From the NCBI GenBank assembly GCA_002256025.1, contig NKIB01013053.1, positions 44,899 through 64,898 on the forward strand: a stretch of DNA of 20,000 nucleotides. Direction: 5' to 3'. A model generated the notes under the pieces. It ran no database searches. It was not told the origin of the DNA and saw only the letters and a program-made list of their open reading frames with translations. Shown one piece after another: positions 1 through 18,279 of this stretch. Position 1 is the first letter of the stretch, and every line of letters begins with the position of its first letter. The position numbers were made by a program, and so were the translations under genes. The DNA comes from Asterionella formosa (lineage: Eukaryota).

Positions 1-495
1 TACAAAAATTTGGTCAACATAAACACAAATTTTGGGGTTATGAGTGCAACAATTTATGTTACAATACTCATGGTATAATATTTTTTTCTATCAGAGCGCG
101 CCCACTAATAAAAAAACAAGAAACTGATATTTCTTCACCACAACCCTAAGCCCTAACCCTTCAGCATTGTTGCAATGTGGTTCTTGTGCGTTGGTCTCCG
201 GGTTTCGGCGATCTTTTGTGGTCGTTTAAGGTCTTCTGCGGTCTTTTGCGAACCTTGCGTTCTTTTAAGGCCTTTTCGTTCGGTCTGATACTAACAGGGT
301 ACCAGAGCCAAATTGCGCTAATCTTGCTGTAACTAAAGATTTAGCTTTTTAAATCTTAGATCGAAATGCTTTTTCTGCAAAATTACCGCGACTTGCCAGA
401 TATACAATTTCTTGGGCTTTATTGGAAGGAATGTTCTTATTGCCCCTGGATGTTTAATGCTTCACCAGAGGTCAAATTTGCTTTCAAGAAATGAG

Positions 496-578
496 AGTCG
501 CGCGTACTTTTCAAGAAGTACGCGATCTTCTTAGAAGTACCAGGTAGTCGAACTGCCTTCGTAGAAGTATGCGCGACT
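496..578. repeat. Inverted and direct repeat cluster upstream of the rhodopsin-kinase gene
   Basis: AGTCGCGCGTACTT (496-509) pairs with AAGTATGCGCGACT (565-578, 1 mismatch), and CGCGTACTT (501-509) pairs with AAGTACGCG (516-524). AGAAGTA occurs three times (514, 533, 563), each shortly after TTC. Confidence 0.55.
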
Positions 579-943
579 AGAATTTCGAATGATATTTGGA
601 AAATTAATAGCGAGGTCTGTGCATGATACACATGAGAAATTTTCCAGATAACGAGGAAGCACGGAGTTTCTTTTACCTCCCAGTACCAGGAGTACCTCGG
701 ACCTACCGTACAAAGGATCATGTTGAATCAACGTACCGGTAAGGGGGTTGTGGTCTTATTCTTTGCTTGCTTCCCTCTTCTCTTTTTAGCTGATTTAAGT
801 AGACGAGGAAATATTATCATATGTATGTATGGATGCAGCCGCCGATGTATATTACCTACCGGTGTATATGTAAAAAAAACACATTATTTCTGATTTACAA
901 AACTAAATCTGGTGGAAGCCTCTGGCCCTCGTCTGTGTCCACC

Positions 944-3877
944 ATGCCAGGCTCCTCAACTCATGATCACAGCTCCTTCAAGCCCAACAGCTTCGGAAGA
1001 CTCGGCGCGCTGGGCACTCAATTCTCTTCGCACGACGTAGAGGTGAAGCGCCTTGGCGCATTTCTCAACCAGGGAGCCTTTGCAGGGTTAATCATTTGGA
1101 TTACACTTGTCTTCGTCGTCTTTTACGCATCTCCACCAGAATCCTATGAGTACCTTGAAGGCCACGAGCTCAAAGCAAACTTACTTCTCTTCGTATTGCT
1201 CTTTGTTACGAATGGCTCGCGATTGCTGCCGCTTTTTTTCAAGGAGCACTCCCAGTTCATGAACACTGGCGCCATGACTGGCTCTTTCACCATCCAGGGC
1301 ATTGCTCTCGCGTCTTGCGGGATCATGATATGTTTACCCACACCAGTTCTGATGGATACTATCACAAACCGACGGGTCCATCTGATGCGATGGGTGGAGT
1401 GGATCCCCCTTGCCTTTCTCATGACCTTCCTCACGGAAGCCATTGACATGCCCAATCACGATCAAGCCGTAGAAGTGGCGTGGGGACATGCATGGGCCCT
1501 GGCCTTCAGTACCATGGCGGGGATTATATTTCCGTTCTGTACCACCCCGTGGCAGTGGATGGTGGTCTTTGTCATTTCTTGCATTCTTTTTTGTAGTTTG
1601 TACGTCCGACTGTATCAACGAATGATGAGGTTTCGACGAACCCCCGTGGGAAATAGTGTCGATGAACAAGAATTGCACGACCGAGCCCGACTGAGTTTCA
1701 GGTTGCTTCAAGCATGCTCCATCATGTGGACGGGAATCATCGTAGCATTTGTTGCGTGCTGCGTTGCGGGAAAGTTTGCGCCAGAAGGGTCATGGTGGGC
1801 GAATCCAGCCTTGCCACTAGTGGTTGAGTGTGCTTTTGAAATTGGATCCAAGATGTGGTATCTCTTGCTTATTGCGGATGTTCATGAAAGCATATTCGAC
1901 GAAGGATTAAGGAGCATCCGTCGATTGAAAGAAATGCGGGATATGATGACCTGTGTGTGGGAATCATCGTCTGATGCAATTGCACTTTGTGTCAGGGGAA
2001 AGGAAACCATAAATGCCGTGGTGAGTCCAACTTTTTTGCGCCTGGGTACAGAAAATGCGGAAAGCGATTCCATGAAGTTGGCTCTTCTATTTGAAATTAC
2101 TCTGCAACCCAATAGTCAAACCAAACCAGAACACAGAATCGCAACCATGGCTATGGCGAAGCTTGGCAAGAGCAAAAAACATAGCCCTAGCCCACCAAAT
2201 TTGCTCTCAGAATTTTTTCACGATGACATGGACTCTTCAGATCAACGGAAAATTGCATCAATGGCGAAGCTGCTCGCCAAATCATGGCACTTTAATAGCC
2301 GAGAATCTCTTGTCATGCATGACTTGTACGGAGAAACACCGACAGGTGAACTACGAACGATTCGATGCGAAGCGAAGATTACCAAGTTAGCCAATGATGC
2401 AGCTGTGGTGGTGTTGCGCGACATTTCGGAAAGATTCCAACGATTTGAAACCGAGAAACAACTCGTTATCGCACTTACGGAGCGCAAGAAGGATTCTGAA
2501 GCGAATCGCTTTGCTCGTCACGAGGTCAAAAACAGTTTAATAGCCGCGCTTTGGATGGTCAATTCCATCAAGGATACCATGGAATCGCCGGATGGAATGG
2601 AAACGAGCAGGGAAACAATGATCAACGTGAGGAGGGAAGCTGATCAGTCTGAAAGTCAAGCGCAGGGCAGTCTTACCCTGGGAAAGGCCGATATTCCTTT
2701 GAATTTCCCGGGTTATATGCGAAAATTGGAAGAGAAGCTTCGCGAGGTCCTGGATACATTGGTGACGGAAGCCATAAGTCGTGAAGTCGTCAAAGAGATT
2801 TACCAACCTCAAAATGAGGCAACCGACATTCGTAGCCTTTTGTCGAAAAATAACCACATGGCATCTTCTGCTGTTGATGATCGCTTTCCCATTTTCGAAT
2901 CAAGGAATCCCTTTCCCAAAATCCTCATCGATCCTGATCTCGTATGTATTTTCCATCGTCACGCCGTTTCGAACGCAGTCAAATATGGCAAACAAGGTGG
3001 TGTGGTGCAAACATATCTCGCTTACGAAACTAAGAATAAGCAGTTGCTCATAAGTGTTACAAACCAGCCTGGTAAAAATCATGCAGTTTTGGTGGAAATG
3101 AACGAGGATGAGACGGCGAAAATATTTTCCTCAGGAACCCGTCTCAACGTGAATAGTAGACCAGTAGACAAAGCAAGTGATGCCCTGTTTGCTATAAGTC
3201 CGGCAGGTGGCGGGGCTTGGATCATGCAAAAGTGTGCCGCGACCATGGGGGGACAGTGTACTATCAAATTTGAGAAAGACTCAACCATATTGTCTCTTTC
3301 CTGTCCTGCCGATGTTGCATCTGACGACTTGTATACATCTGGCGTTTTGGTAAGGGATTCAGCATCACATTTTGAAGTTCCCAAGAACACGTGGGGAATT
3401 GCTGTGGATGACTCTGGTATTCAGAGAAAATTTTTGGAGCGCTTCATGTCCTTGTCCGGAATCGAAAGTAGTAGACGAAGGATTCTGGGAGGATCAGATC
3501 AAGAGATTTTTGGATTCAATGAATATCTAGAGAAACTAATTGTTGAAAACCCTGATGACAAGTTTATGGTCATTGTCGACGAGAACCTAGTGGTTGAGGA
3601 GAAAAAGATTCAACAAACAATTTCCGGTTCCAAGTGTATTGAGACACTGCTGCATAATTTGAAGCCTGAAGATTCACTGCGTTTGCTCGCACTTGTGCGC
3701 AGTGAGGCGGATTCCAGCATAGATATCGCCATGTACAAGGCCCGCACTCACGGTTTTATTTCGAAATCACACATTCACAAAGATATGGTGCTACCGATCA
3801 TTGAATGCTGGTGGAAACTGCGTTTTCCCACAGAGGCCGGGGTAGACCTTTCAAGGCAAAAATCGCTTCTTCAGTAA
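944..3877 (+). CDS. Rhodopsin-like 8-TM / PAS-like / HisKA / HATPase / receiver hybrid histidine kinase (candidate histidine kinase rhodopsin)
   Basis: 1018-aa ORF (821..3877); the likely start is ACCATG at 944 (M42). Eight hydrophobic segments lie at about aa 85-354. RWVEW (nt 1388-1402) matches bacteriorhodopsin helix C RYADW, and EIGSK (nt 1838-1852) matches helix G DVSAK. A PAS-like region runs from WESSSDAIAL to VVVLRDISERF. Kinase motifs: H-box RHEVKNSL (H at 2519), N-box SNAVKYG (N at 2972), F-box KIFSSG, G2-like AGGGAWI..MGG. Receiver motifs: IAVDDS (3407), VIVDENL (D at 3578), GFISK. Confidence 0.88.
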   Translation: MPGSSTHDHSSFKPNSFGRLGALGTQFSSHDVEVKRLGAFLNQGAFAGLIIWITLVFVVFYASPPESYEYLEGHELKANLLLFVLLFVTNGSRLLPLFFKEHSQFMNTGAMTGSFTIQGIALASCGIMICLPTPVLMDTITNRRVHLMRWVEWIPLAFLMTFLTEAIDMPNHDQAVEVAWGHAWALAFSTMAGIIFPFCTTPWQWMVVFVISCILFCSLYVRLYQRMMRFRRTPVGNSVDEQELHDRARLSFRLLQACSIMWTGIIVAFVACCVAGKFAPEGSWWANPALPLVVECAFEIGSKMWYLLLIADVHESIFDEGLRSIRRLKEMRDMMTCVWESSSDAIALCVRGKETINAVVSPTFLRLGTENAESDSMKLALLFEITLQPNSQTKPEHRIATMAMAKLGKSKKHSPSPPNLLSEFFHDDMDSSDQRKIASMAKLLAKSWHFNSRESLVMHDLYGETPTGELRTIRCEAKITKLANDAAVVVLRDISERFQRFETEKQLVIALTERKKDSEANRFARHEVKNSLIAALWMVNSIKDTMESPDGMETSRETMINVRREADQSESQAQGSLTLGKADIPLNFPGYMRKLEEKLREVLDTLVTEAISREVVKEIYQPQNEATDIRSLLSKNNHMASSAVDDRFPIFESRNPFPKILIDPDLVCIFHRHAVSNAVKYGKQGGVVQTYLAYETKNKQLLISVTNQPGKNHAVLVEMNEDETAKIFSSGTRLNVNSRPVDKASDALFAISPAGGGAWIMQKCAATMGGQCTIKFEKDSTILSLSCPADVASDDLYTSGVLVRDSASHFEVPKNTWGIAVDDSGIQRKFLERFMSLSGIESSRRRILGGSDQEIFGFNEYLEKLIVENPDDKFMVIVDENLVVEEKKIQQTISGSKCIETLLHNLKPEDSLRLLALVRSEADSSIDIAMYKARTHGFISKSHIHKDMVLPIIECWWKLRFPTEAGVDLSRQKSLLQ

Positions 3878-4289
3878 GAACTGTTAAAAATTTTATGTTT
3901 TCTTGTTCACAAAGAGTCGACAATATTCGGATGCAGATATCAAACAACCAGTTCTATGCGAGTGAGTTTGGCCGCACAACGAGGTATTTCGGATCAAAAA
4001 ATCAAGGACTGGAATCGACAATTTGTAAGAATGCCCTGTGAATCTAAACGAAAGCGTTATACCGAAAGTTGCTTAAAGACGAACCCAAATGAGCCTAATA
4101 TCCAAATGTCAGCAAAGGTAGGCACAGGTTTTGTTACATTGCTTAATGTGAAAGCTCCGTGTGGGCGAGATATACAATTATGTAACAGGGAAACATGTAC
4201 CTTTCCACAACGATTTAATTTGAACTACTATATATACAGAGACCATCATCTCAGAGTGATGAATTACGTACCATGCAACAAAATCTTTT

Positions 4290-5030
4290 TTCTTCAAGAC
4301 TCTTCTCCGAATCGAGTTCTTCTAGCCGCGCCTTCATTTCGATGATTCTCTCCTTGTGCAAATAGTCATCAATCACGTCACTGCTTCTTTCGGGTCTGAA
4401 ATCATGTCAAAGAACTGAGCAGAACCATAATCAGTGTACTCGATATACTTGTAGTCCATCCTGATCAACCCTCTTGCTGTTGGCCAGGAGGACTTCGGAT
4501 CAAGTAAGTATTGAAATTTCGTAAGTAACTCTTTTCGCCAGTCAGTTGAGGTTGTTCGGAAAATTTAAGAAATGTCATGTCCACGTTTAAGGTGAAATTA
4601 TCATTTGGAAGCCCTCCTCCAGTGGAATCCACTTCCCTGCGAGACCGTGCAAGGCATGAACATATCCATTGTCAGTTGTGACCATGACCATTGTTTCGTT
4701 GAGAATTCCATGCCGTTCTAGTTCTTCGTAGACCTTGTCAGCAGCGCTGTCAACTTCAGCAATCAAACGATAGTACTTCTTGACCATTATCTGGTACTAC
4801 TTGCATGGTTGGGTGTCAAAAGCGCAAATGATACTATCTTCGCCGACCTTCAAAGCCTCTGCAAAGGACCTGTTCTTGAGCATTTGCCAGCTCGAATCTC
4901 TTCCATTATTGGGATTCGGAATCGTATCGTTTATATAAAGCGCCATGGACTAGGGGATTGGGGCAGTAAATACTCCTTCATGGCATTCGTATCTGGGTTC
5001 TGGTCATAGTTTATAGCGCGAGGTGGATGT
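4290..5030 (-). pseudogene. Sulfatase-family pseudogene (C-terminal half, with frameshifts and stops)
   Basis: ORF 4587..4787 (KYYRLIAEVD...GILNETMVMVTTDNGYVHALHGLAGKW) carries the sulfatase D-N-G and G-K-W motifs. Fragments in other frames continue the protein: SMALYINDTIPNP...FEGRRR*YHLRF upstream and MDYKYIEYTDYGSAQFFDMISDPKE...IEMKARLEEL downstream. No N-terminal CxPxR motif was seen. Boundaries are approximate. Confidence 0.8.
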
Positions 5031-8636: not shown

Positions 8637-10085
8637 ATGATGCCAAGAAGTTCTCAAGACCGTGCTTTCCAACATCTCACCCATAAACCTCACGGCTTTG
8701 ATGAGATGGACCCGTTTTGTGTTCATGCGATGTTCGAGGATCGGCGGCTCCAACAACACGCGATAGCAGCAGCTGCTGCTTCAGAGTGCAACCAAAAGAA
8801 ATTTCTTTCAAACATTTTGAACCCGAAAAAAGCAGGGATACCAAAAGTCATTCGTTTTCAACAAGAAGATGCGCCAGACAAGGAAGCAGAGAAGAAGCAT
8901 TTCGAACCTTCTCCTTTTGTTGGGATGATCATTGAGGTTCAACAAGAACAACAAGTTGATGGACGTCGTACTCCTCCTCGAGGGAACTTGTCACTTGATC
9001 CAAATAATCGAAACAGATACTCAAGAAAATCTCAACCCTCCATGTCTCAAACACCACCCCGTACTCGTCAGCAATCTCTTTTTGATAATGCCATCTCCTC
9101 GGAACAATACCGACTAGGCAGGCAACATTCGGGTGAGTCGTCACATCCGCTATCAAGACGCCCGGGTGATCGATCACTAGTTAGAGATGTCAGAGATGAA
9201 ATCAATATCACAGGCGGACCGCTGTCCTCTGCATCTATTGCTACCAAGAAAAAAAGCTCCGTCAACGAGCGAAAAACTTTCACAACAAGACAAGAGGATT
9301 TGCAGTGGAAGAGCTCAGGAAATTGGACCCACGAAGTTAAAACACGTTCCAAGCGACCAAACTTACCACCGGAGCGTAGGTCAAAAACCGTCTTGGAGGT
9401 GGCCAATCATATCACTTCAAGGAGAAGCGAATTGCGGCAAAAGAGCTCAAGGGATAGCACTCATGGCGTTGCTCATTCTGCTGATAGACCTGCTTCCGGG
9501 TCCATTCGACCTTGCAAGCGACAAGAAACTGACACTTCAATTCACCCTGAAATGCAAAGACGAAACTTGGGGGATGGCAAAAGGCCTCCACATGAAATAA
9601 TTACTTCAGTGCTGGTGCGTCCGTCACATGTTCCGCTCGAAGCCATTGATCATCTCGCTTCATCCCGCCAAAAATTCTGCCAATCCCACTCCATGGGCAC
9701 AGGCCAGGAACGAATCAACCTGGGATATGACAAATCCAAGTCTATCGTGGTCTCAACTGTGGGCCCTCATTGTGCCCGATCCTTGGGACTGAATACATCT
9801 GAACGATCTGCTCAAAGATCTATAGGTTCCAAGATGTCTGCCACAAATTTAAGTTCCTCAGCTCCTGTTCACCTATCCCTCAAGAGTGAAGGTCATCGAG
9901 GGTTATTTCAAAGGCAGGAGCATAACCAAGTGGAACATCTCTCCCGGTTCATTGAGCAATCTTCAACTTCTAATAGATCTCCTCTAACACTGTCCATATC
10001 ACCAAAATCATATTCTCAACCAGGAATGGTAAAACTTGGCCCATTGTCCAAAACGAAGACTTTCTTTGGCAGCAAAGCAGCCTAG
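8637..10085 (+). CDS. Hypothetical protein, S/R/Q/P-rich, probably intrinsically disordered
   Basis: 482-aa uninterrupted ORF with ACCATG start context and AT-rich flanks. No recognisable domain. Confidence 0.65.
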   Translation: MMPRSSQDRAFQHLTHKPHGFDEMDPFCVHAMFEDRRLQQHAIAAAAASECNQKKFLSNILNPKKAGIPKVIRFQQEDAPDKEAEKKHFEPSPFVGMIIEVQQEQQVDGRRTPPRGNLSLDPNNRNRYSRKSQPSMSQTPPRTRQQSLFDNAISSEQYRLGRQHSGESSHPLSRRPGDRSLVRDVRDEINITGGPLSSASIATKKKSSVNERKTFTTRQEDLQWKSSGNWTHEVKTRSKRPNLPPERRSKTVLEVANHITSRRSELRQKSSRDSTHGVAHSADRPASGSIRPCKRQETDTSIHPEMQRRNLGDGKRPPHEIITSVLVRPSHVPLEAIDHLASSRQKFCQSHSMGTGQERINLGYDKSKSIVVSTVGPHCARSLGLNTSERSAQRSIGSKMSATNLSSSAPVHLSLKSEGHRGLFQRQEHNQVEHLSRFIEQSSTSNRSPLTLSISPKSYSQPGMVKLGPLSKTKTFFGSKAA

Positions 10086-11285: not shown

Positions 11286-13031
11286 CTAGAAACATCCAGC
11301 TGTCGCAATACCTATTACACAACAGCTACATTGGACACTACAGGGAACTATAGCTTCGATGCTGGAACAATAGGAAGTGGGAGCAGTCCCAACAAAATTA
11401 TTGCCTGACAAATCCAAATGATAACTGACTTGAAGGGACGGCAACGAACCAGTTAGTCTGTTTGATGATAAAGTCAAAACCTGAAGATTCAATAAATTGC
11501 CAAAAACTTCCGGTAGTGATCCCGTGAAACCATTGGCATCCAAACTGAGCACAGCAAGTTTGGTTAAAATTCCAATAGTTGTTTGAAGGGTCCCAGTAAG
11601 GTCATTGTAGCTCAAATCAATAGTTTTGAGGCTTTTGTCTAAGAGTCCAAGCTCAGATGGCAAAGTCCCAATGAAAGCATTTCCTCTCAAATCAATTTGA
11701 GTGAGTGCTGTTAGTAATCCCACAGATGAAGGTAGAGACCCAATTAAACCGGTATTTTTCATGGTGACTGACTTCAGATTTGAAAGGAGGCCTAATTCTT
11801 CGGAAAGGGTACCAGTAATGGAATTCGCAGAAAAGTCTAGTTCAACAAGCGATGTGAGACTGTATAAGCCTTCGGGAATGGTACTTGACAAGATGAGATT
11901 GTTGAGAATCAAAGACGTCAGCTTTGAAAGGCGGTGAATCCCTTCAGGAATGGACCCTTCGAAATTGTTCGAGGACAGATCGAGCACCTTCAACTTAGCC
12001 AACTCCCACAACTCTACAGGAATGCGCCCGTACAACGAATTTACGGACAAGTTGAGGTACGTTAACGCAGGAAAAAAGCGAAAGATGGAGCTTGGCAGCT
12101 CTCCATTGAGCTTTTGACCCAACAAATTGATTGCTGAAACTTTTAACAAAGAATTGCATGTCACACCTTTCCATTCGCATTCACTTCCCGTTCCCAACCA
12201 CTCAGTGGAGTACGTGGACGACCACCCTCCTAAGCTGAGATGCAGCAGTGCGAGCCCAAACCGCTGCTTAATTGTATCGTTGGTTGCGAAAATCCCCGAA
12301 ACATCAGCCATATCTATGGCAGACCACCAAAGTGCAATGTTCTCCGGGCTGCATTCGTCATCTGGACCGCTATATTCTGAAAACAGCTGCGAGGCTCGAA
12401 TGTCAGAGTAAATCGTCATGGTTGATTCAGACGAAATGGAAATTTTCGAAAAACAAGAGCATTGAAGGACTGGGGAAGGATCCGGTACGGGAAAAAAATC
12501 GCATTCACCAGCTTGAGTGGCAGCACTTCCATGCGAGTTTCGATTCTCCTTGCTTGCAAAATAGGCCCCTAAGCCTCCTCCGATCATGGCAGCAACAACC
12601 ACTACAACGACAATCGCCACATGCCACCTTCGCTTGTTCGTCTCCTTCCTCAGAACGACATCAGCATCTATTGTTGGCACGATGCGAAGTGGTAGTGCTG
12701 CCGACGATCCGTGTGTCATTTCCTCTGGTGCGGGACCTGGACTAAAGTCCGTGTCCTCAGGCAATGAAGCTGTCGGATCCCAGGATCGTGTGCTGCTTCC
12801 CAACAGTCCCGAAGTATCTTGCAGCATCCTTTGGGATCTGCGAATCAGTTGTACGGCATAGGCTCCAGGAGTGGTGGTGGTACCATCCGAAGACTCCATG
12901 TTTGCTTCTCTTCCTCGATTTATTGTCCTTGCAGATGTTGCAAGGAGCGCTTCTTCATTGGTAAGAGGACCTAGCGCGGCCTTTTCGCGGCGCTCCACAG
13001 TAATAGACATTCCTCGGCTTGGACGACTCAT
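11286..13031 (-). CDS. Leucine-rich-repeat single-pass membrane protein (receptor-like, no kinase domain), predicted type II topology
   Basis: 581 aa. Disordered N-terminus with PGAYAV, basic KRR before a TM segment (WHVAIVVVVVVAAMIGGGLGAYF), Cys-containing stalk, LRRNT-like cap ECEWKGVTC, about 10 plant-type LRRs (LxxLxLxxNxLxGxIP), C-terminal CxxxCxCC. Confidence 0.9.
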   Translation of the reverse strand: MSRPSRGMSITVERREKAALGPLTNEEALLATSARTINRGREANMESSDGTTTTPGAYAVQLIRRSQRMLQDTSGLLGSSTRSWDPTASLPEDTDFSPGPAPEEMTHGSSAALPLRIVPTIDADVVLRKETNKRRWHVAIVVVVVVAAMIGGGLGAYFASKENRNSHGSAATQAGECDFFPVPDPSPVLQCSCFSKISISSESTMTIYSDIRASQLFSEYSGPDDECSPENIALWWSAIDMADVSGIFATNDTIKQRFGLALLHLSLGGWSSTYSTEWLGTGSECEWKGVTCNSLLKVSAINLLGQKLNGELPSSIFRFFPALTYLNLSVNSLYGRIPVELWELAKLKVLDLSSNNFEGSIPEGIHRLSKLTSLILNNLILSSTIPEGLYSLTSLVELDFSANSITGTLSEELGLLSNLKSVTMKNTGLIGSLPSSVGLLTALTQIDLRGNAFIGTLPSELGLLDKSLKTIDLSYNDLTGTLQTTIGILTKLAVLSLDANGFTGSLPEVFGNLLNLQVLTLSSNRLTGSLPSLQVSYHLDLSGNNFVGTAPTSYCSSIEAIVPCSVQCSCCVIGIATAGCF

Positions 13032-13993
13032 GGTTGATACATGTTGTGTTCAAAAAGTCAATGGCAAGGAACAGAACATTAATTCTATGTGCGATGGGCC
13101 CCTTCGGAATATATGCACATGACCGCTGCTGTCAGAGAGAACTGCAAGTAATACTCTCTCTTTGCGGTCACAATATAATCATTAAGTACAACATTATGTA
13201 CAAAATATCTTATTGCACCAGCCATTGCAGCATTGCAATAGCATCCTTTGACATCCTTCGCCCCTTCGGTTTTTACATACAATACAAACATCCCATATAC
13301 TGTGGTGGATTCTTCAAATTGTTTACTTGGGACAGGTAAATTAATCACGTTTCTAAGCAATCCCAATTACGGTATCTGGTACAGGTAATTGGCGATGTAC
13401 ATGGTACCTGATACCTGATTGCACCCCTAAATATCAATGCCTCCTTGGAGTTTTGTACATAGTCTTGAGTCATGTTATTTAGTATTACAGCACTGATGTA
13501 TAGCCCATTCGTGACTAAATCCAAGACAAGGATATAGTTCACCACTTATACGCATATATAATATATGTACAACACACGAAGAAAAACTTTCTACCGGGAC
13601 TGCAAGTTTGACGATGATCATTCATGAGTTCAATAAATGTTATCAAATCCTTATATATTTACATTTCTTATGAATATTCATACCGGTATATATGAATAGT
13701 TTTCCGGACAACACATAACGGAATCAAGTTTAGACATTTATTATTTCCGATGGTATTTTTTAACAGTACTTTAGATTGATGATATGACAATACATGTAAC
13801 GGGGTTTTCTCTAATTTAACTTTATGGAATACTTTTAATTGTACACAGTAGCATCTCGACCCATACTTCGTCTCCAAAGGAGACATTTCGACGAGGAGAG
13901 TGACTTCTTTCCGTTTTGTCGACAGGAACAGAGGATTGAATCTTACCTCAATATTTGTTGATCATCGCTCTATCGTATAGTCACTCGAGAATA

Positions 13994-15709
13994 ATGTCTG
14001 CAGGTAGCATCTCGTCAGGAAGGGGCAAAACGCGAAGGGATGATGCCGAAGAAACGGAGACTTGGGGCCAGCCCTTTCCGCTGGGAGGTTCCCTCGACCA
14101 ACTATCTAATCACACTCGGCAATTTGTCATGGACTCAGAAAGCCCTCCTTATAAGCCCCGACCGTCAATGACAAAGTTGGATAGTATGGGCTCATCCATG
14201 ATCTCCATCGCTCATTTTGATGACTCCCTCTCCGATCTTCGCGACAATCTCGAGAGATTTTCACAGGAAGGGACCAAGGCGCGAATGACCAACAAACCTT
14301 CCAAACAAACGAGGACTGCTTCTGTGCTTAGTAGTAGTCACAAAAAGATTCTGATTGCTTATTATATTTGGCTATTCACAGCTACAGCTGTGTTTACAGG
14401 TCTTGCCGTGAGCATGCACATGCAATCCAAAAACGCAGTCTACACCACCATTGGACAGTGCAACAATGTGTCTGGGAACCCTTACTTGCAATGTATCTGT
14501 GGCCAGAGTCAAGTCACTGGTGACGTCTCGGAAATTGTGGATCTTCGTTTCATGGAATTGAATATTCACTTTGGACTTGAAAGGGGTGCGATTTATGACA
14601 CAAACTCTTGTCAGAACCCATACAATGTAGCCCTTTGGTGGCTGGCTATGAAGACTGAAAGTCTAGATGCCAAGAGACTGATGACTCTGTTTTCATTGGC
14701 GCTTTTGTACCTTAATTTAGATGGAACTAATTGGAACCATCAGACTGATTGGATGTACCATGAAGTGAACGAGTGTGATTGGGGAGGAGTCACTTGTTCC
14801 TATGAGTTGCTCGCTGACCCGTCCACTACAAACGTTGATGCTGGTGTTGTGGTACAATTGGTTTTGGACAATATGAAGTTATCCGGGAGTTTGCCCAGCG
14901 AGATTGGCTTGTTGACCGACTTGGAAACGCTGAGCTTGGGCAACAACGATTTCTGCGGCAAATTGCCAAAAGAAATTTTGGGTCTGACCAATCTTCAAGA
15001 GTTGTCATTGCAAGGAAACGCGTTTGAAGGCACAATACCCGATCCAACTATTTTCTCACATTTAAAAGTTTTGGTACTTGGGAACAACAAGTTCTCTGGA
15101 GTTCTTCCAGAGAATAGTCTCTATAAATGGACAGGACTACAGGAGCTCATTCTTGAGAGTAACTCTTTCTCGGGAAGTTTACCAAGCTCACTGGCAACGT
15201 TGACACAGCTATCCAACCTTAATTTGGCCAAAAATACCTTCAAGGGGGCGATGCCGGACATTTTTGCACTGACAGATCTAAAATGGCTCATTGTGAATGA
15301 TAACGAACTGACCGGAACATTGAATAATTTCTTCCCTAATAGGTTGGAAACTCTTGATATGTCCAACAACATGTTCAACGGTACCCTACCAAACAACTAT
15401 GGTAGCCTATCCAAACTCAGCATTTGCAACCTCGGTCACAACAAGAACTTAAGGGGAAAACTTCCGAGCGAATACGGTTCATTGTACAATCTCAATGTAC
15501 TCGGACTCTCCTCGTGTCAACTGACAGGAATCATTCCATCGGAACTTGGAAACTTGGAAACGATATCAATATTGGATTTGGGAAATAACATGTTTAAGGG
15601 CAATATGCCAATGGAGGTGTGTAAATTGAAAGTGACTGGGTTCTTACAAGAGCTGTTGGTGAATTGTGACGTGAATTGCACCTGTTGTCCCAACGACTGC
15701 GATGCTTAA
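13994..15709 (+). CDS. Leucine-rich-repeat single-pass membrane protein (receptor-like, no kinase domain), predicted type II topology
   Basis: ORF 13955..15709 opens on TTG; the first ATG is at 13994. Disordered N-terminus, TM (ILIAYYIWLFTATAVFTGLAVSM) after HKK, LQCIC stalk, NVALWWLA, ECDWGGVTC cap, about 10 plant-type LRRs, C-terminal CDVNCTCC. Confidence 0.9.
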   Translation: MSAGSISSGRGKTRRDDAEETETWGQPFPLGGSLDQLSNHTRQFVMDSESPPYKPRPSMTKLDSMGSSMISIAHFDDSLSDLRDNLERFSQEGTKARMTNKPSKQTRTASVLSSSHKKILIAYYIWLFTATAVFTGLAVSMHMQSKNAVYTTIGQCNNVSGNPYLQCICGQSQVTGDVSEIVDLRFMELNIHFGLERGAIYDTNSCQNPYNVALWWLAMKTESLDAKRLMTLFSLALLYLNLDGTNWNHQTDWMYHEVNECDWGGVTCSYELLADPSTTNVDAGVVVQLVLDNMKLSGSLPSEIGLLTDLETLSLGNNDFCGKLPKEILGLTNLQELSLQGNAFEGTIPDPTIFSHLKVLVLGNNKFSGVLPENSLYKWTGLQELILESNSFSGSLPSSLATLTQLSNLNLAKNTFKGAMPDIFALTDLKWLIVNDNELTGTLNNFFPNRLETLDMSNNMFNGTLPNNYGSLSKLSICNLGHNKNLRGKLPSEYGSLYNLNVLGLSSCQLTGIIPSELGNLETISILDLGNNMFKGNMPMEVCKLKVTGFLQELLVNCDVNCTCCPNDCDA

Positions 15710-16376: not shown

Positions 16377-18279
16377 TTACGCAGCACACCATCCACCACT
16401 AGGAGGTCGGCAAGTTGTTTTACCACTGCTCACGTCAGCGGGTGCCACACAGCAGGTATAACCACCACTACAGGTGTCGACATTTCTTCTACAGTTATTC
16501 CAGTTGGGCACAGTCGAAGATGAAGCGCAATATGTAGCACTTTGGTTTGGTCGACAAGTGGCTTTGCCACTGGAAACATCAGCAGGTGCGACACAGCAAA
16601 CCCAATTATTAGCGCAAGTGCTCGATCCACGTGTGCAGGTACTCCAGTTGGGAATTAGGGGCTGTGATTGCCCCACACTAATGCAGCTGCTACCAGCAAG
16701 GTAATTGCCAATGGCACTTCTTGACTGTGGGCTAAAGCCGTTGGCCCCACTGTTGACTGTCGGCTCCATGATCCATTCGACATTAGAAGTAAATGGATCA
16801 TGGTTATAACCTGTTGTAGATAGTAGGCAGCAAAGGTTAAGTGCATGATGCAAGGTATTGCAGGTATTTGGGATGTGATTCGACAACGTACCAGCATTGT
16901 GTCCCAGTTCGTGGGCAAAGGAAACGGTTTGCGACTGTAGGTCTCGAGATGCAAAGTTATGTATAGCGTAAGAATTTGAATTACAAAGGTTTCTTGTCCA
17001 TGCACATCCAACTATACTGGACTCGAACGAAGTCCCAGTGAACAAGTGAGCTGTGTCTCGATTCACTGAGCTTCTATTGGTATTAAAGTAATTTGTGAAC
17101 CAACGGAGCAGTCCATCTCCTGAACAGCCAGATTGTCTGCTTGCGGTACCGGCTCTGTATGGGTCTGTGCTGGGATCGCAAAAGCCCTCCATGTGAGTAA
17201 TCTGGATCTTGGTGCAAAGATTACTCTGATAGATAGAGGAGGCACGAGCAACGATCTGCTGAGCAATGGCATTTGCATTGTTAGCGCCGCCAGCTTCCCT
17301 GCAGAATGAAGAATCGTACGCAATCGCAAGATCAATAACTCTGAGTGAACCACATCCTGACTGTAAGTTTCTTTCGTCCATTACTGACGAATCAGCTCCT
17401 CTCGCCATCAAGGTTCGCGACTCGTTTCCATTGCTACCATCTTTGCTCGGATCTGCATGCGCCAAAACGAATTGTTTCATTGCCTTTTTATCAAGAGCTT
17501 CAGGAAGCATAATAGCAAGTACTCCGTCTGAAATTTCATGCATTTGCATATTTGATCCATCCGTGTAGGTGATATCGACCGTTTCCACGTTTCCTCCAGG
17601 TCCTTTTGTTACCAGCATAGTACTATCAGATTCAACTTTCATGAAAGTGGCCGCTGTAGGACGTGCCTTCGCCTTTCCCTCAAACATATAAGTGGCATCA
17701 TCAGAAAACACGTCCATAGGGATGAGACCTTCCAGTGAGTGTACGGCACCATTAACCTTAATTGTGTTACGCTTCGAAATCTTTTGCATGGGCAAGTCTA
17801 CCCCCTTTTTCATGTGGTGACGTGACATGAACTTATCCATAATTTCAGTGGAAGGTACCTCGAACAAGGAATCATCATCATCTTGCTTCTGTTTCTTTGT
17901 CTTCTTCAGGACTCTGCTCACTCCTGCGCCCTTCATTCCCATCCCATTTGACCCTAAGACAGACGAAGGAGTTGCATTGATGCTGTGAGGCTCCTCTTCT
18001 TGAGACACACTCCTATGTCCGCGCAGTTCTCCCTGTACGGATGAGTTCCGAAAATTAACAAGTATTCAAAAAGAGAAGTTGTTAGAAACGTTAAAACAGA
18101 ATGTCGGGACATGTGTGTGTTCCTCAGTGTGTGTGTCATAAAATAATGAGAGGCCATTGGATCAAACGGAGGGGTGGTGATACTATGAAGATACCTACTT
18201 TTAGTCCCTCAATGTTAGTGATTGCCATGAGAGCCAATAAGACCGATAGAAGGATAGATTTCTTGTTGAGTTTAGTCAT
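16377..18279 (-). CDS. Secreted zinc metalloprotease, metzincin M12B/reprolysin-like, with pro-region and two Cys-rich C-terminal repeats; 3 exons (18279-18199, 18032-16892, 16810-16377), about 551 aa
   Basis: Exon 1 encodes a signal-peptide-like MTKLNKKSILLSVLLALMAITNIEGLK. After splicing the zinc motif reads HELGHNAGYNHD (HExxHxxGxxHD), followed by the Met-turn WIMEP. Other reprolysin-like segments: IDLAIAYDSSFC, RDTAHLFTG, IVGCAW..LC. Confidence 0.88.
16380..16655 (-). repeat. Two tandem ~45-aa six-Cys coding repeats
   Basis: IPNWSTCTRGSSTCANNWVCCVAPADVSSGKATCRPNQSATYC and VPNWNNCRRNVDTCSGGYTCCVAPADVSSGKTTCRPPSGGWC share the core CCVAPADVSSGKxTCRP. Confidence 0.9.
16811..16891 (-). other. 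Spliceosomal intron 2 of the metalloprotease (81 nt, phase 1, in-frame, stop-free)
   Basis: Donor G|GTACGT at 16891, branch-like CTTAAC, acceptor CAACAG| at 16811. Removal restores HELGHNAGYNHD. Confidence 0.85.
18033..18198 (-). other. Spliceosomal intron 1 of the metalloprotease (166 nt, phase 0)
   Basis: Donor AAA|GTAGGT at 18198 and acceptor TACAG|GGA at 18033. Splicing joins the signal peptide in frame to GELRGHRSVSQEE; the unspliced read-through hits a stop. Confidence 0.8.

Follow-up and report, generated by a model that had tools for sequence, protein, structure and literature searches.

A putative rhodopsin-histidine kinase gene in the diatom Asterionella formosa and the divergent protein family to which it belongs

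A 20,000-nucleotide stretch of the genome of the freshwater diatom Asterionella formosa (GenBank assembly GCA_002256025.1, contig NKIB01013053.1, positions 44,899 to 64,898 of the forward strand; hereafter the window, to which all coordinates refer) carries on its plus strand a gene whose product, judging by structure models and family profiles, is probably a sensory enzymerhodopsin of the histidine-kinase type. The list of open reading frames (ORFs) and its translation give an ORF at 821..3877 on the plus strand, open over 1,018 codons and encoding 1,018 amino acids (aa), and the residue numbers of an initial annotation, made from the sequence alone, match this 1,018-aa ORF. That annotation had described a rhodopsin-like transmembrane (TM) bundle fused to PAS-like, histidine-kinase and receiver modules with no output domain, and had supposed that it might represent a distinct and poorly characterised family. 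The features of the gene are listed here together with the evidence on which each was placed.

944..3877, plus strand: likely coding sequence, M42 to stop (start of conservation, ATG context, RNA-library contigs)
1070..1132, plus strand: predicted extra N-terminal helix TM0, aa ~84-104 (long first helix of the model; hydropathy at 78-108; alignment to the rhodopsin phosphodiesterase Rh-PDE from model residue 18-20)
1151..1900, plus strand: predicted seven-helix microbial-rhodopsin core, aa 111-360 (VIA-align to bacteriorhodopsin, model 52..301 on chain 5..231; Foldseek; profile matches)
1388..1402, plus strand: TM3 motif R190-W-V-E193-W194, putative Arg, counterion Glu and pocket Trp (HMMER alignment to Rh-PDE and bestrhodopsin; conservation)
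1727..1729, plus strand: W303, putative TM6 pocket Trp (81/81 rows; aligned to the W of 'WVLY' in bestrhodopsin domain 1)
1838..1852, plus strand: TM7 motif E340-I-G-S-K344, second counterion and putative retinal Schiff-base Lys (conservation; counting from aligned ranges)
1898..1966, plus strand: predicted helical linker continuing TM7, aa 360-382 (helical at 2-33 in the cytoplasmic and at 302-323 in the membrane model; Rh-PDE alignment through model residue 340)
1976..2422, plus strand: PAS-like beta-rich domain, aa 386-534, the loop at ~450-470 being modelled at low confidence (secondary structure b-b-a-b-b-(loop)-a-b-b-b; alignments to PAS-kinases)
2426..2791, plus strand: predicted DHp (HisKA-like) hairpin, aa 536-657, with the H-box 'RHEVKN' and H567 at 2519-2521 (model helices 187-239 and 280-308; matches to HK853 and ShkA)
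2816..3316, plus strand: predicted CA (HATPase) domain, aa 666-832, with N718 at 2972-2974, the G1-box Asn748 at 3062-3064 and the G2 GGG at aa 796-798 (VIA-align; profile; Pfam HATPase_c)
3377..3829, plus strand: predicted receiver domain, aa 853-1003, with D863, D864, D920, S961 and K982 (VIA-align to CheY; Atlas look-up; residue counts)
3830..3877, plus strand: 15-residue tail and stop, no HPt-like domain (sequence; downstream stop-to-stop frames; hidden Markov model (HMM) of the family tail)

Conservation within the family starts near aa 54 of the ORF, and the ATG at 944 (M42) stands in the context ACCATG; translation is therefore likely to start at 944. At least part of the stretch was contained in 20 public runs, eight of which are on record as RNA, mostly lake-water metatranscriptomes. 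Contigs from four of these, namely three lake metatranscriptomes (poly-A or cDNA) and a poly-A transcriptome, were compared with the gene, and are evidence of its presence, not of its expression level. They are colinear with the gene, begin at 799-898, extend past 4400 and cover 898-3877 without joints, and the gene is thus intron-free as far as the contigs of the four runs go. The same runs, all of RNA, gave no cover at 500-761, which is not proof of a transcript start. Inside the ORF the contigs differ at 32 sites, of which 15 are synonymous and 17 non-synonymous, where an excess of replacements of about 3:1 would be expected with no selection; this points to moderate selective constraint on the Asterionella formosa copy. 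The retinal-site residues, H567, N718, D863/D864, D920, S961 and K982 are all intact in this copy.

Standard searches with the single protein are nearly silent about its domains. Pfam returned HATPase_c alone (E 0.026, 15.4 bits against a cut-off of 26.4), Bac_rhodopsin (PF01036) gave no match to this protein at E<=10, and phmmer against the PDB found nothing significant, Rh-PDE appearing at E 9.8. When 31 family members were scanned singly, HATPase_c was found in 27 of them at E<=0.01 and in all 31 at E<=5, and HisKA, Response_reg, Hpt and PAS were not among the 25 families listed of 41. Since single-sequence searches are blind to these domains, the domains were tested by family profiles and structure models.

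The AlphaFold2 model of the membrane part (aa 60-400), with a predicted local distance difference test score (pLDDT) of 91.2 and a predicted TM-score (pTM) of 0.87, contains eight long helices, and a beta-hairpin precedes the third helix of the seven-TM core, the one that bears R190-W194. Foldseek comparison of this model with the PDB yielded 58 matches at E<=1e-3, and all those listed are microbial rhodopsins. The TM domain of Salpingoeca Rh-PDE comes first (E 6.9e-6, with a TM-score on the target of 0.63-0.67), and after it come Chrimson, archaerhodopsin-2, sensory rhodopsin II and bacteriorhodopsin. VIA-align placed model residues 18..340 on residues 45..353 of Rh-PDE chain 7d7q_B with Z 22.1 and 283 aligned residues, TM0 and linker included; it gave Z 21.9 and a root-mean-square deviation (rmsd) of 3.4 Å for Rh-PDE chain 7cj3_A, and Z ~20 and rmsd 2.6-2.9 Å for bacteriorhodopsin and sensory rhodopsin II, of whose ~220-230 residues 213-225 were aligned. 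Identity of the membrane domain to solved rhodopsins is 9-16%. An alignment of aa 60-400 with 80 relatives (81 rows) nevertheless gave a profile that matches bestrhodopsin 7pl9_A at E 3.3e-6, with both rhodopsin domains of the latter aligned, and Rh-PDE at E 5.4e-4 and 8.1e-4. The rhodopsin-like bundle of the initial annotation was thus borne out by the model, by Foldseek, by VIA-align, by the profile matches and by the presence of K344 in 80 of the 81 rows. The check that it had proposed against Bac_rhodopsin left PF01036 unmatched, but the fold and the family profile both match microbial rhodopsins, and we read the Pfam failure as divergence for this reason.

The extra helix and the helical linker that leads from helix 7 to the cytoplasmic effector are two features of the eight-TM enzymerhodopsins that the model reproduces; TM0 is described for these enzyme rhodopsins in the text available from a recent review (PMC12558739). 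Both the N and the C terminus of the modelled rhodopsin domain should be cytoplasmic. A heliorhodopsin reading was set aside: there was no heliorhodopsin among the Foldseek and VIA-align matches listed, and TM0 together with the cytoplasmic kinase suggests the type-1 orientation.

The residues expected around retinal are conserved to a high degree. In the HMMER alignment the family motif 'RVHLVRWcEW' falls on 'VWLMRYAEW' of Rh-PDE and on 'RVYAVRYMEW' of bestrhodopsin, a stretch that we take to correspond to R82, D85 and W86 of bacteriorhodopsin (BR), as W303 presumably corresponds to BR W182. Among the 81 rows, R190 is kept in 80, W191 in 78, E193 in 75, W194 in 77, W303 in 81 and K344 in 80. 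Position 340, four residues before K344, is acidic in 80 of the 81 (48 E and 32 D), and in some family members the TM7 motif reads 'MDVVAKV'. K344 itself lies 13 residues into the 29-residue helix 7. Counting from the ends of the aligned ranges, which assumes that helix 7 is free of gaps, puts it, for sensory rhodopsin II, at residue 205 in five of six rows and, for Rh-PDE, at residue 296; these, and residue 216 of BR, we take to be the Schiff-base lysines. In BR numbering, positions 85, 89 and 96 would presumably be E, L and L, and position 212 would be E. Such a combination of Glu at both counterion positions and Leu at both pump positions speaks for a sensor and against a proton pump.

The cytoplasmic part was analysed in the same way, with an alignment of aa 350-1018 and 98 relatives (99 rows) and an AlphaFold2 model of aa 350-1018 (pLDDT 84.4, pTM 0.70). 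In the model, the helix that continues TM7 (351-382) is followed by a beta-rich domain (386-534), a helical hairpin (536-588 and 629-657, the loop between the two helices being poorly modelled), an alpha/beta domain (666-832) and a (beta/alpha)5 domain (853-1003). Against the PDB, Foldseek gave 316 matches at E<=1e-3. The top one is a WalK model (E 1e-14, 497 columns), and the LOV-kinases SB2F1 and YF1 match at E 4e-12 to 9e-12 over ~473 columns, with targets of 364-366 residues; further matches include the hybrid kinase ShkA, VicK, a full-length bacteriophytochrome and HK853. The beta-rich domain has seven strands and two helices in the model, where a PAS domain is a five-stranded antiparallel sheet flanked by helices, and it occupies the position that PAS has in PAS-kinases. 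VicK, WalK and the bacteriophytochrome align with the model from its residue 1 onwards and hence across this domain, but at an rmsd of 11-14 Å, and the alignment to the LOV-kinase YF1 likewise runs from model residue 1 through the kinase. The domain is likely to be PAS-like on the strength of the model; as regards the PAS-like module placed between rhodopsin and kinase by the initial annotation, a beta-rich domain does lie there, but the high rmsd of the alignments is why it is called PAS-like here and not a PAS domain.

The kinase and receiver folds named in the annotation were confirmed. The modelled DHp hairpin and CA domain together match HK853 with Z 16-17, and ShkA is matched with Z 17.3; position 567 is His in 92 of the 99 rows (gap in three, Gln in two, Asp and Asn in one each). 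The CA domains of HprS, ThkA and WalK align with Z 16-17 and rmsd 2.6-2.7 Å, the family profile matches YycG at E 9e-5, and N718, which the annotation had pointed out, is invariant (99/99), with G796 and G798 of the G2 box kept in 98 of 99 rows each. The Asp of the G1 box is replaced by Asn748. For the receiver, VIA-align to CheY gave Z 14.8-15.0 and rmsd 2.0 Å over 126-127 of 127-128 residues (model 504..654 on CheY 2..129), and 29 of 30 named matches in a language-model Atlas look-up of aa 848-1018 were Response_reg (score 0.91). The acidic pair, the phospho-acceptor and the terminal Lys that the annotation had named are kept almost throughout the 99 rows (D863 in 96, D864 in 99, D920 in 98 and K982 in 99), as is S961 (99). 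The receiver also carries a beta-hairpin insert directly after strand beta3, the one with the phospho-Asp, at aa ~922-935 (3584-3625); it ends in S935-G936-S937, which are kept in 98, 99 and 99 of the 99 rows, respectively.

Only 15 residues follow the receiver in the Asterionella formosa protein, and the annotation was right that no output domain is present. Most relatives, in contrast, extend ~100 residues past the receiver and share the conserved motif 'LHxLKGDLKTM'. Domain patterns were counted with HMMs made from the family's own alignment (E<=1e-5, at least 60% coverage) in the 150 proteins of at least 950 aa among 295 stored: rhodopsin, kinase, receiver and tail were found together in 120 of the 150, rhodopsin, kinase and receiver without the tail in 21, and other partial patterns in nine. 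When 27 tails were compared by hhalign with six Escherichia coli HPt domains (CheA P1, BarA, RcsD, ArcB, TorS and EvgS), a match over 90 columns was obtained at E 0.026, with a low hhalign probability of 1.9%, and it put the family motif 'LHxLKGD' on the HPt His motif. The whole-family profile gave a single local match to the ArcB HPt domain, on the same motif (E 0.61, probability 0.09%). The Atlas look-up of the tail found Hpt clusters at 0.87-0.88, which is a lead only, and there was no sequence match to the tail in the PDB at E<=10. The tail of the relatives is probably HPt-like.

The HMM of the family tail found no HPt-like segment in any of the six frames of the 20-kb window at E<=10, the frames downstream of the gene hold neither an HPt exon nor a separate HPt gene, and the RNA-library contigs pass through without joints. 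The closest relatives, P0002 (98% identical) and P0003 and P0004 (87% over the cytoplasmic part), end likewise without the tail; the next closest, P0005 and P0006 (56 and 54% over the cytoplasmic part), carry it. A tail missing in the closest relatives and present in the next closest is, by comparison of these sequences, a secondary loss in an HPt-less sublineage. HPt-less members also occur in the annotated Fistulifera and Nitzschia genomes. P0003 and P0004 are cut at the N terminus; outside their altered H-box they are kept, including those rhodopsin motifs that are present in these sequences.

The protein belongs to a large family. A word-indexed search found 43 relatives at E<=1e-3, and an exhaustive phmmer search of 1.84 billion cluster representatives found 760 at E<=1e-3, 552 at E<=1e-10 and 289 at E<=1e-30, the 760 being clusters at 50% identity. 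A search with the kinase-receiver part of the relative P0009 gave 355 matches at E<=1e-5, and the best 120, all below 1e-119, all belong to this family. All organism names among the matches listed are those of diatoms: Licmophora paradoxa, Cylindrotheca closterium, C. fusiformis, Seminavis robusta, Ditylum brightwellii, two Thalassiosira, Bacillariaceae sp., Fistulifera solaris, Nitzschia inconspicua, Rhizosolenia setigera and one name beginning 'Core', which we take to include both centric and pennate diatoms. Some species have more than one member (four entries in Cylindrotheca closterium, two in Seminavis robusta and two clustered sequences in Nitzschia inconspicua), which suggests an expansion of the gene family. 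Giant-virus relatives were looked for in IMG/VR, where none of 16 pattern matches was confirmed by tblastn. The product names among the matches listed are 'hypothetical', 'uncharacterized', 'unnamed', 'expressed unknown protein', 'histidine kinase domain-containing' and 'signal transduction histidine kinase'. The supposition that the family is distinct and poorly characterised therefore agrees with the number of clusters, the exclusively diatom names among those matches, the uninformative product names and the recognition of HATPase_c alone by Pfam.

The photoreceptors so far known from diatoms are aureochromes, cryptochromes, phytochromes, pump-type rhodopsins and heliorhodopsins. A search of the main texts of openly accessible literature brought up no account of a diatom rhodopsin kinase. 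According to the available text of a 2025 review, enzyme rhodopsins occur in fungi, green algae and choanoflagellates (PMC12558739), and a survey of eukaryotic histidine kinases, as far as its text was available, located 'bacteriorhodopsin HKs' (histidine kinases) in green algae and Thecamonas and reported none in Fistulifera solaris (PMC6324907). According to the same text, that survey admitted a protein only if Pfam recognised two or more of HisKA, HATPase_c and REC in it (PMC6324907); the diatom family fails this two-domain rule, and a member of it is present in F. solaris. With nothing but its ATPase domain recognisable, the family would escape any survey that relies on Pfam domains. A further survey of this type, in the part available, used PF01036, PF18761 and PF10192. 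Rhodopsin-histidine-kinase transcripts were reported, in the available portion of one study, as undetected in open-ocean metatranscriptomes (PMC8017926). A 2026 network of ~40,000 rhodopsins contains 17 uncharacterised clusters, none of which is described as a diatom kinase fusion in section 10 of that work (PMC13739731); its supplementary clusters might include the present family among those 17.

The closest known counterparts by architecture are the histidine kinase rhodopsins (HKRs), namely Chlamydomonas HKR1/COP5, Ostreococcus Ot-HKR and 2c-Cyclops. In the descriptions available, they too combine an N-terminal microbial rhodopsin, a two-component kinase and a receiver in one chain, and presumably signal by phosphotransfer, as would be the case here. 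Going by the same partial descriptions, the diatom family differs from the green-algal HKRs in having a PAS-like domain between rhodopsin and DHp and, in most members, an HPt-like tail; it also differs in lacking a cyclase, in its Asn G1 box, in its diatom host and in a rhodopsin, DHp and receiver that are invisible to Pfam. The Rh-PDE of Salpingoeca rosetta (7cj3, 7d7q) is the best structural match, covering TM0, the seven-TM core and the helical linker, yet its effector is a phosphodiesterase and identity is 13-16%. Bestrhodopsin (7pl9), a rhodopsin-bestrophin fusion and the best sequence match of the family profile, consists of tandem rhodopsins fused to an ion channel and has no kinase. 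Sensory rhodopsin II with HtrII and CheA is likewise a case of a rhodopsin that controls a histidine kinase, with a fold match of Z ~20, but the system is archaeal and made of separate proteins coupled via a transducer. On the cytoplasmic side, the kinase-receiver-HPt order of most family members is that of the tripartite hybrid kinases ArcB, BarA, EvgS and TorS, with LHxLKGD on the HPt phospho-His motif; those kinases are bacterial and their sensors are not rhodopsins, while the window's protein lacks HPt and the HPt match of the family is weak (E 0.026). The PAS/LOV kinases (YF1 4gcz, SB2F1 and bacteriophytochrome 9eut) and WalK/VicK are the top cytoplasmic Foldseek matches (E 1e-14 to 2e-10) and span sensor, DHp and CA; in them PAS or LOV is the sensor, whereas here it would be an intermediate module without a recognisable cofactor site.

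If the protein is an enzymerhodopsin, it possibly works as follows. All-trans retinal would form a protonated Schiff base with K344, its counterions being E193 and E340, and its isomerisation by light would move helices 6 and 7. Within a dimer, this movement would reach the DHp bundle by way of the linker helix and the PAS-like domain. There it would shift the balance between autophosphorylation and dephosphorylation at H567, and with it the phosphorylation state of D920. The next acceptor, in most of the family, may be the His of the built-in C-terminal HPt-like domain, from which the phosphoryl group would go on to a separate response regulator. For the present copy, which has lost the tail, the alternatives would be transfer to a separate HPt protein or signalling by the phosphorylated receiver itself. 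The output through a separate HPt or response regulator that the initial annotation had foreseen thus fits the HPt-less sublineage, but not most relatives, which carry an HPt-like domain of their own.

Several observations weigh against this reading, and they concern the rhodopsin, the coupling domain, the kinase and the individual copy. At the retinal site, it is only from motifs and aligned ranges that K344 is predicted to point inward, the counting that led to residues 205 and 296 puts K344 at BR residue 215, one short of K216, and Bac_rhodopsin matches two of 31 family members, with a best E of 0.32. The position that we take to be equivalent to BR Y185 is Leu or Ile. Together with the missing Pfam rhodopsin match to this protein and the 9-16% identity to solved rhodopsins, this might suggest an opsin-like fold that no longer binds retinal and serves an ordinary hybrid kinase as a chemical, voltage or lipid sensor, or as a membrane anchor or dimeriser; rhodopsin-fold clusters without the lysine do exist, as the available part of the network study reports (PMC13739731). 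However, conservation of the Lys, both carboxylates, the TM3 Arg and the two pocket Trp ranges from 75 to all 81 of the diverse rows, which is hard to explain without a chromophore, and we regard the loss of retinal binding as distinctly improbable. The PAS-like assignment, which stays likely, depends on multi-domain alignments of high rmsd. In the kinase, the G1 box reads N-x-P-G instead of D-x-G-x-G, with Asn748 in 97 of the 99 rows aligned with the Asp of YycG. The G1 Asp contacts the adenine amino group in GHKL ATPases, and its change to Asn abolishes ATP binding in other GHKL proteins. The CA domain may accordingly be that of a pseudokinase or use a nucleotide other than ATP, in which case signalling would proceed by light-dependent conformation or binding, or by GTP-dependent phosphorylation. 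We consider this unlikely, since the almost complete invariance of the Mg-binding Asn718, the G2 glycines, the H-box His and the receiver Asp would be expected only if phosphoryl chemistry were kept; because the other phosphoryl machinery is conserved, kinase activity is probably retained, although the Asn of the G1 box forbids assuming it outright.

The remaining objections concern the individual copy and the novelty of the family. The Asterionella formosa protein lacks the HPt-like tail that is present in 120 of the 150 long relatives, and it departs from near-invariant family residues at seven positions (N714H, S794P, D797G, A962E, N963A, P981S and P984H), D797G weakening the G2 box. In the relatives at 87% identity, P0003 and P0004, the H-box is 'RFARDEVKD' and the phospho-His is thus replaced by Asp (H567D), and the selection signal on this copy, with replacement and silent changes among the lake variants at 17:15, is only moderate. 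It may be, then, that the family is photosensory and that this member is a decaying or re-purposed paralogue, serving as a sink for phosphate, as a phosphatase or as a catalytically inactive partner to intact paralogues. Against such decay stand the open frame of 1,018 codons, the intact kinase, receiver and retinal-site residues, the presence of the gene in RNA libraries of several studies and the HPt-less members of the annotated Fistulifera and Nitzschia genomes, which suggest a working sub-type; a decayed copy seems improbable to us on balance. To a similar degree we doubt that the protein is just a diverged member of the known HKRs (HKR1/COP5, Ot-HKR and 2c-Cyclops), with nothing new except the host lineage. 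Its order of rhodopsin, kinase and receiver is identical to that of the HKRs, the TM0 of enzyme rhodopsins, as covered by the accessible text of PMC12558739, is modelled here too, and 'bacteriorhodopsin HKs' outside the green algae are on record for Thecamonas in the part of PMC6324907 available. That survey was domain-based, though, and the green algae and Thecamonas are where its available text locates such proteins, whereas the diatom family matches HATPase_c only; moreover, the PAS-like insert and the HPt-like tail are absent from the HKR descriptions as far as these are available, and the best sequence matches are bestrhodopsin and Rh-PDE, the PDB holding no HKR structure to compare.

We therefore retain the enzymerhodopsin with a histidine kinase as the probable identity of the protein. 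This kind of protein is known from green algae; what would be new is the PAS-like insert, the HPt-like tail, the Asn G1 box and the divergence, and it is by published descriptions that the family is set apart from its counterparts. The wider proposition, namely that diatoms possess a large unrecognised family of eight-TM rhodopsin photoreceptors with a PAS-like-coupled one-chain His-Asp-His phosphorelay and an Asn-type nucleotide pocket, of which the window's gene is an HPt-less offshoot, has in our judgement an even chance of being correct. If true, a group that ranks among the main primary producers of the ocean would prove to sense light through a pathway based on retinal, and the joining of a sensory rhodopsin to a phosphorelay would give diatom light signalling a new input. 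The natural coupling of rhodopsin, PAS and kinase, possibly with a changed nucleotide pocket, could also be of value for protein engineering.

The other genes of the window are eukaryote-like. On the minus strand at ~4250-4800, convergent with the rhodopsin-kinase gene, lies a Sulfatase-family gene in several short frames, apparently with introns; its piece at 4587-4796 matches Pfam Sulfatase at E 4.4e-8, and the RNA-library contigs continue through the region. An ORF of 482 aa at 8637-10085 on the plus strand has no Pfam match at E<=1e-3. Farther along, two leucine-rich-repeat proteins and a reprolysin-type (M12B) metalloprotease are encoded at 11286-13031 (minus strand), 13955-15709 (plus strand) and 16377-18008 (minus strand).

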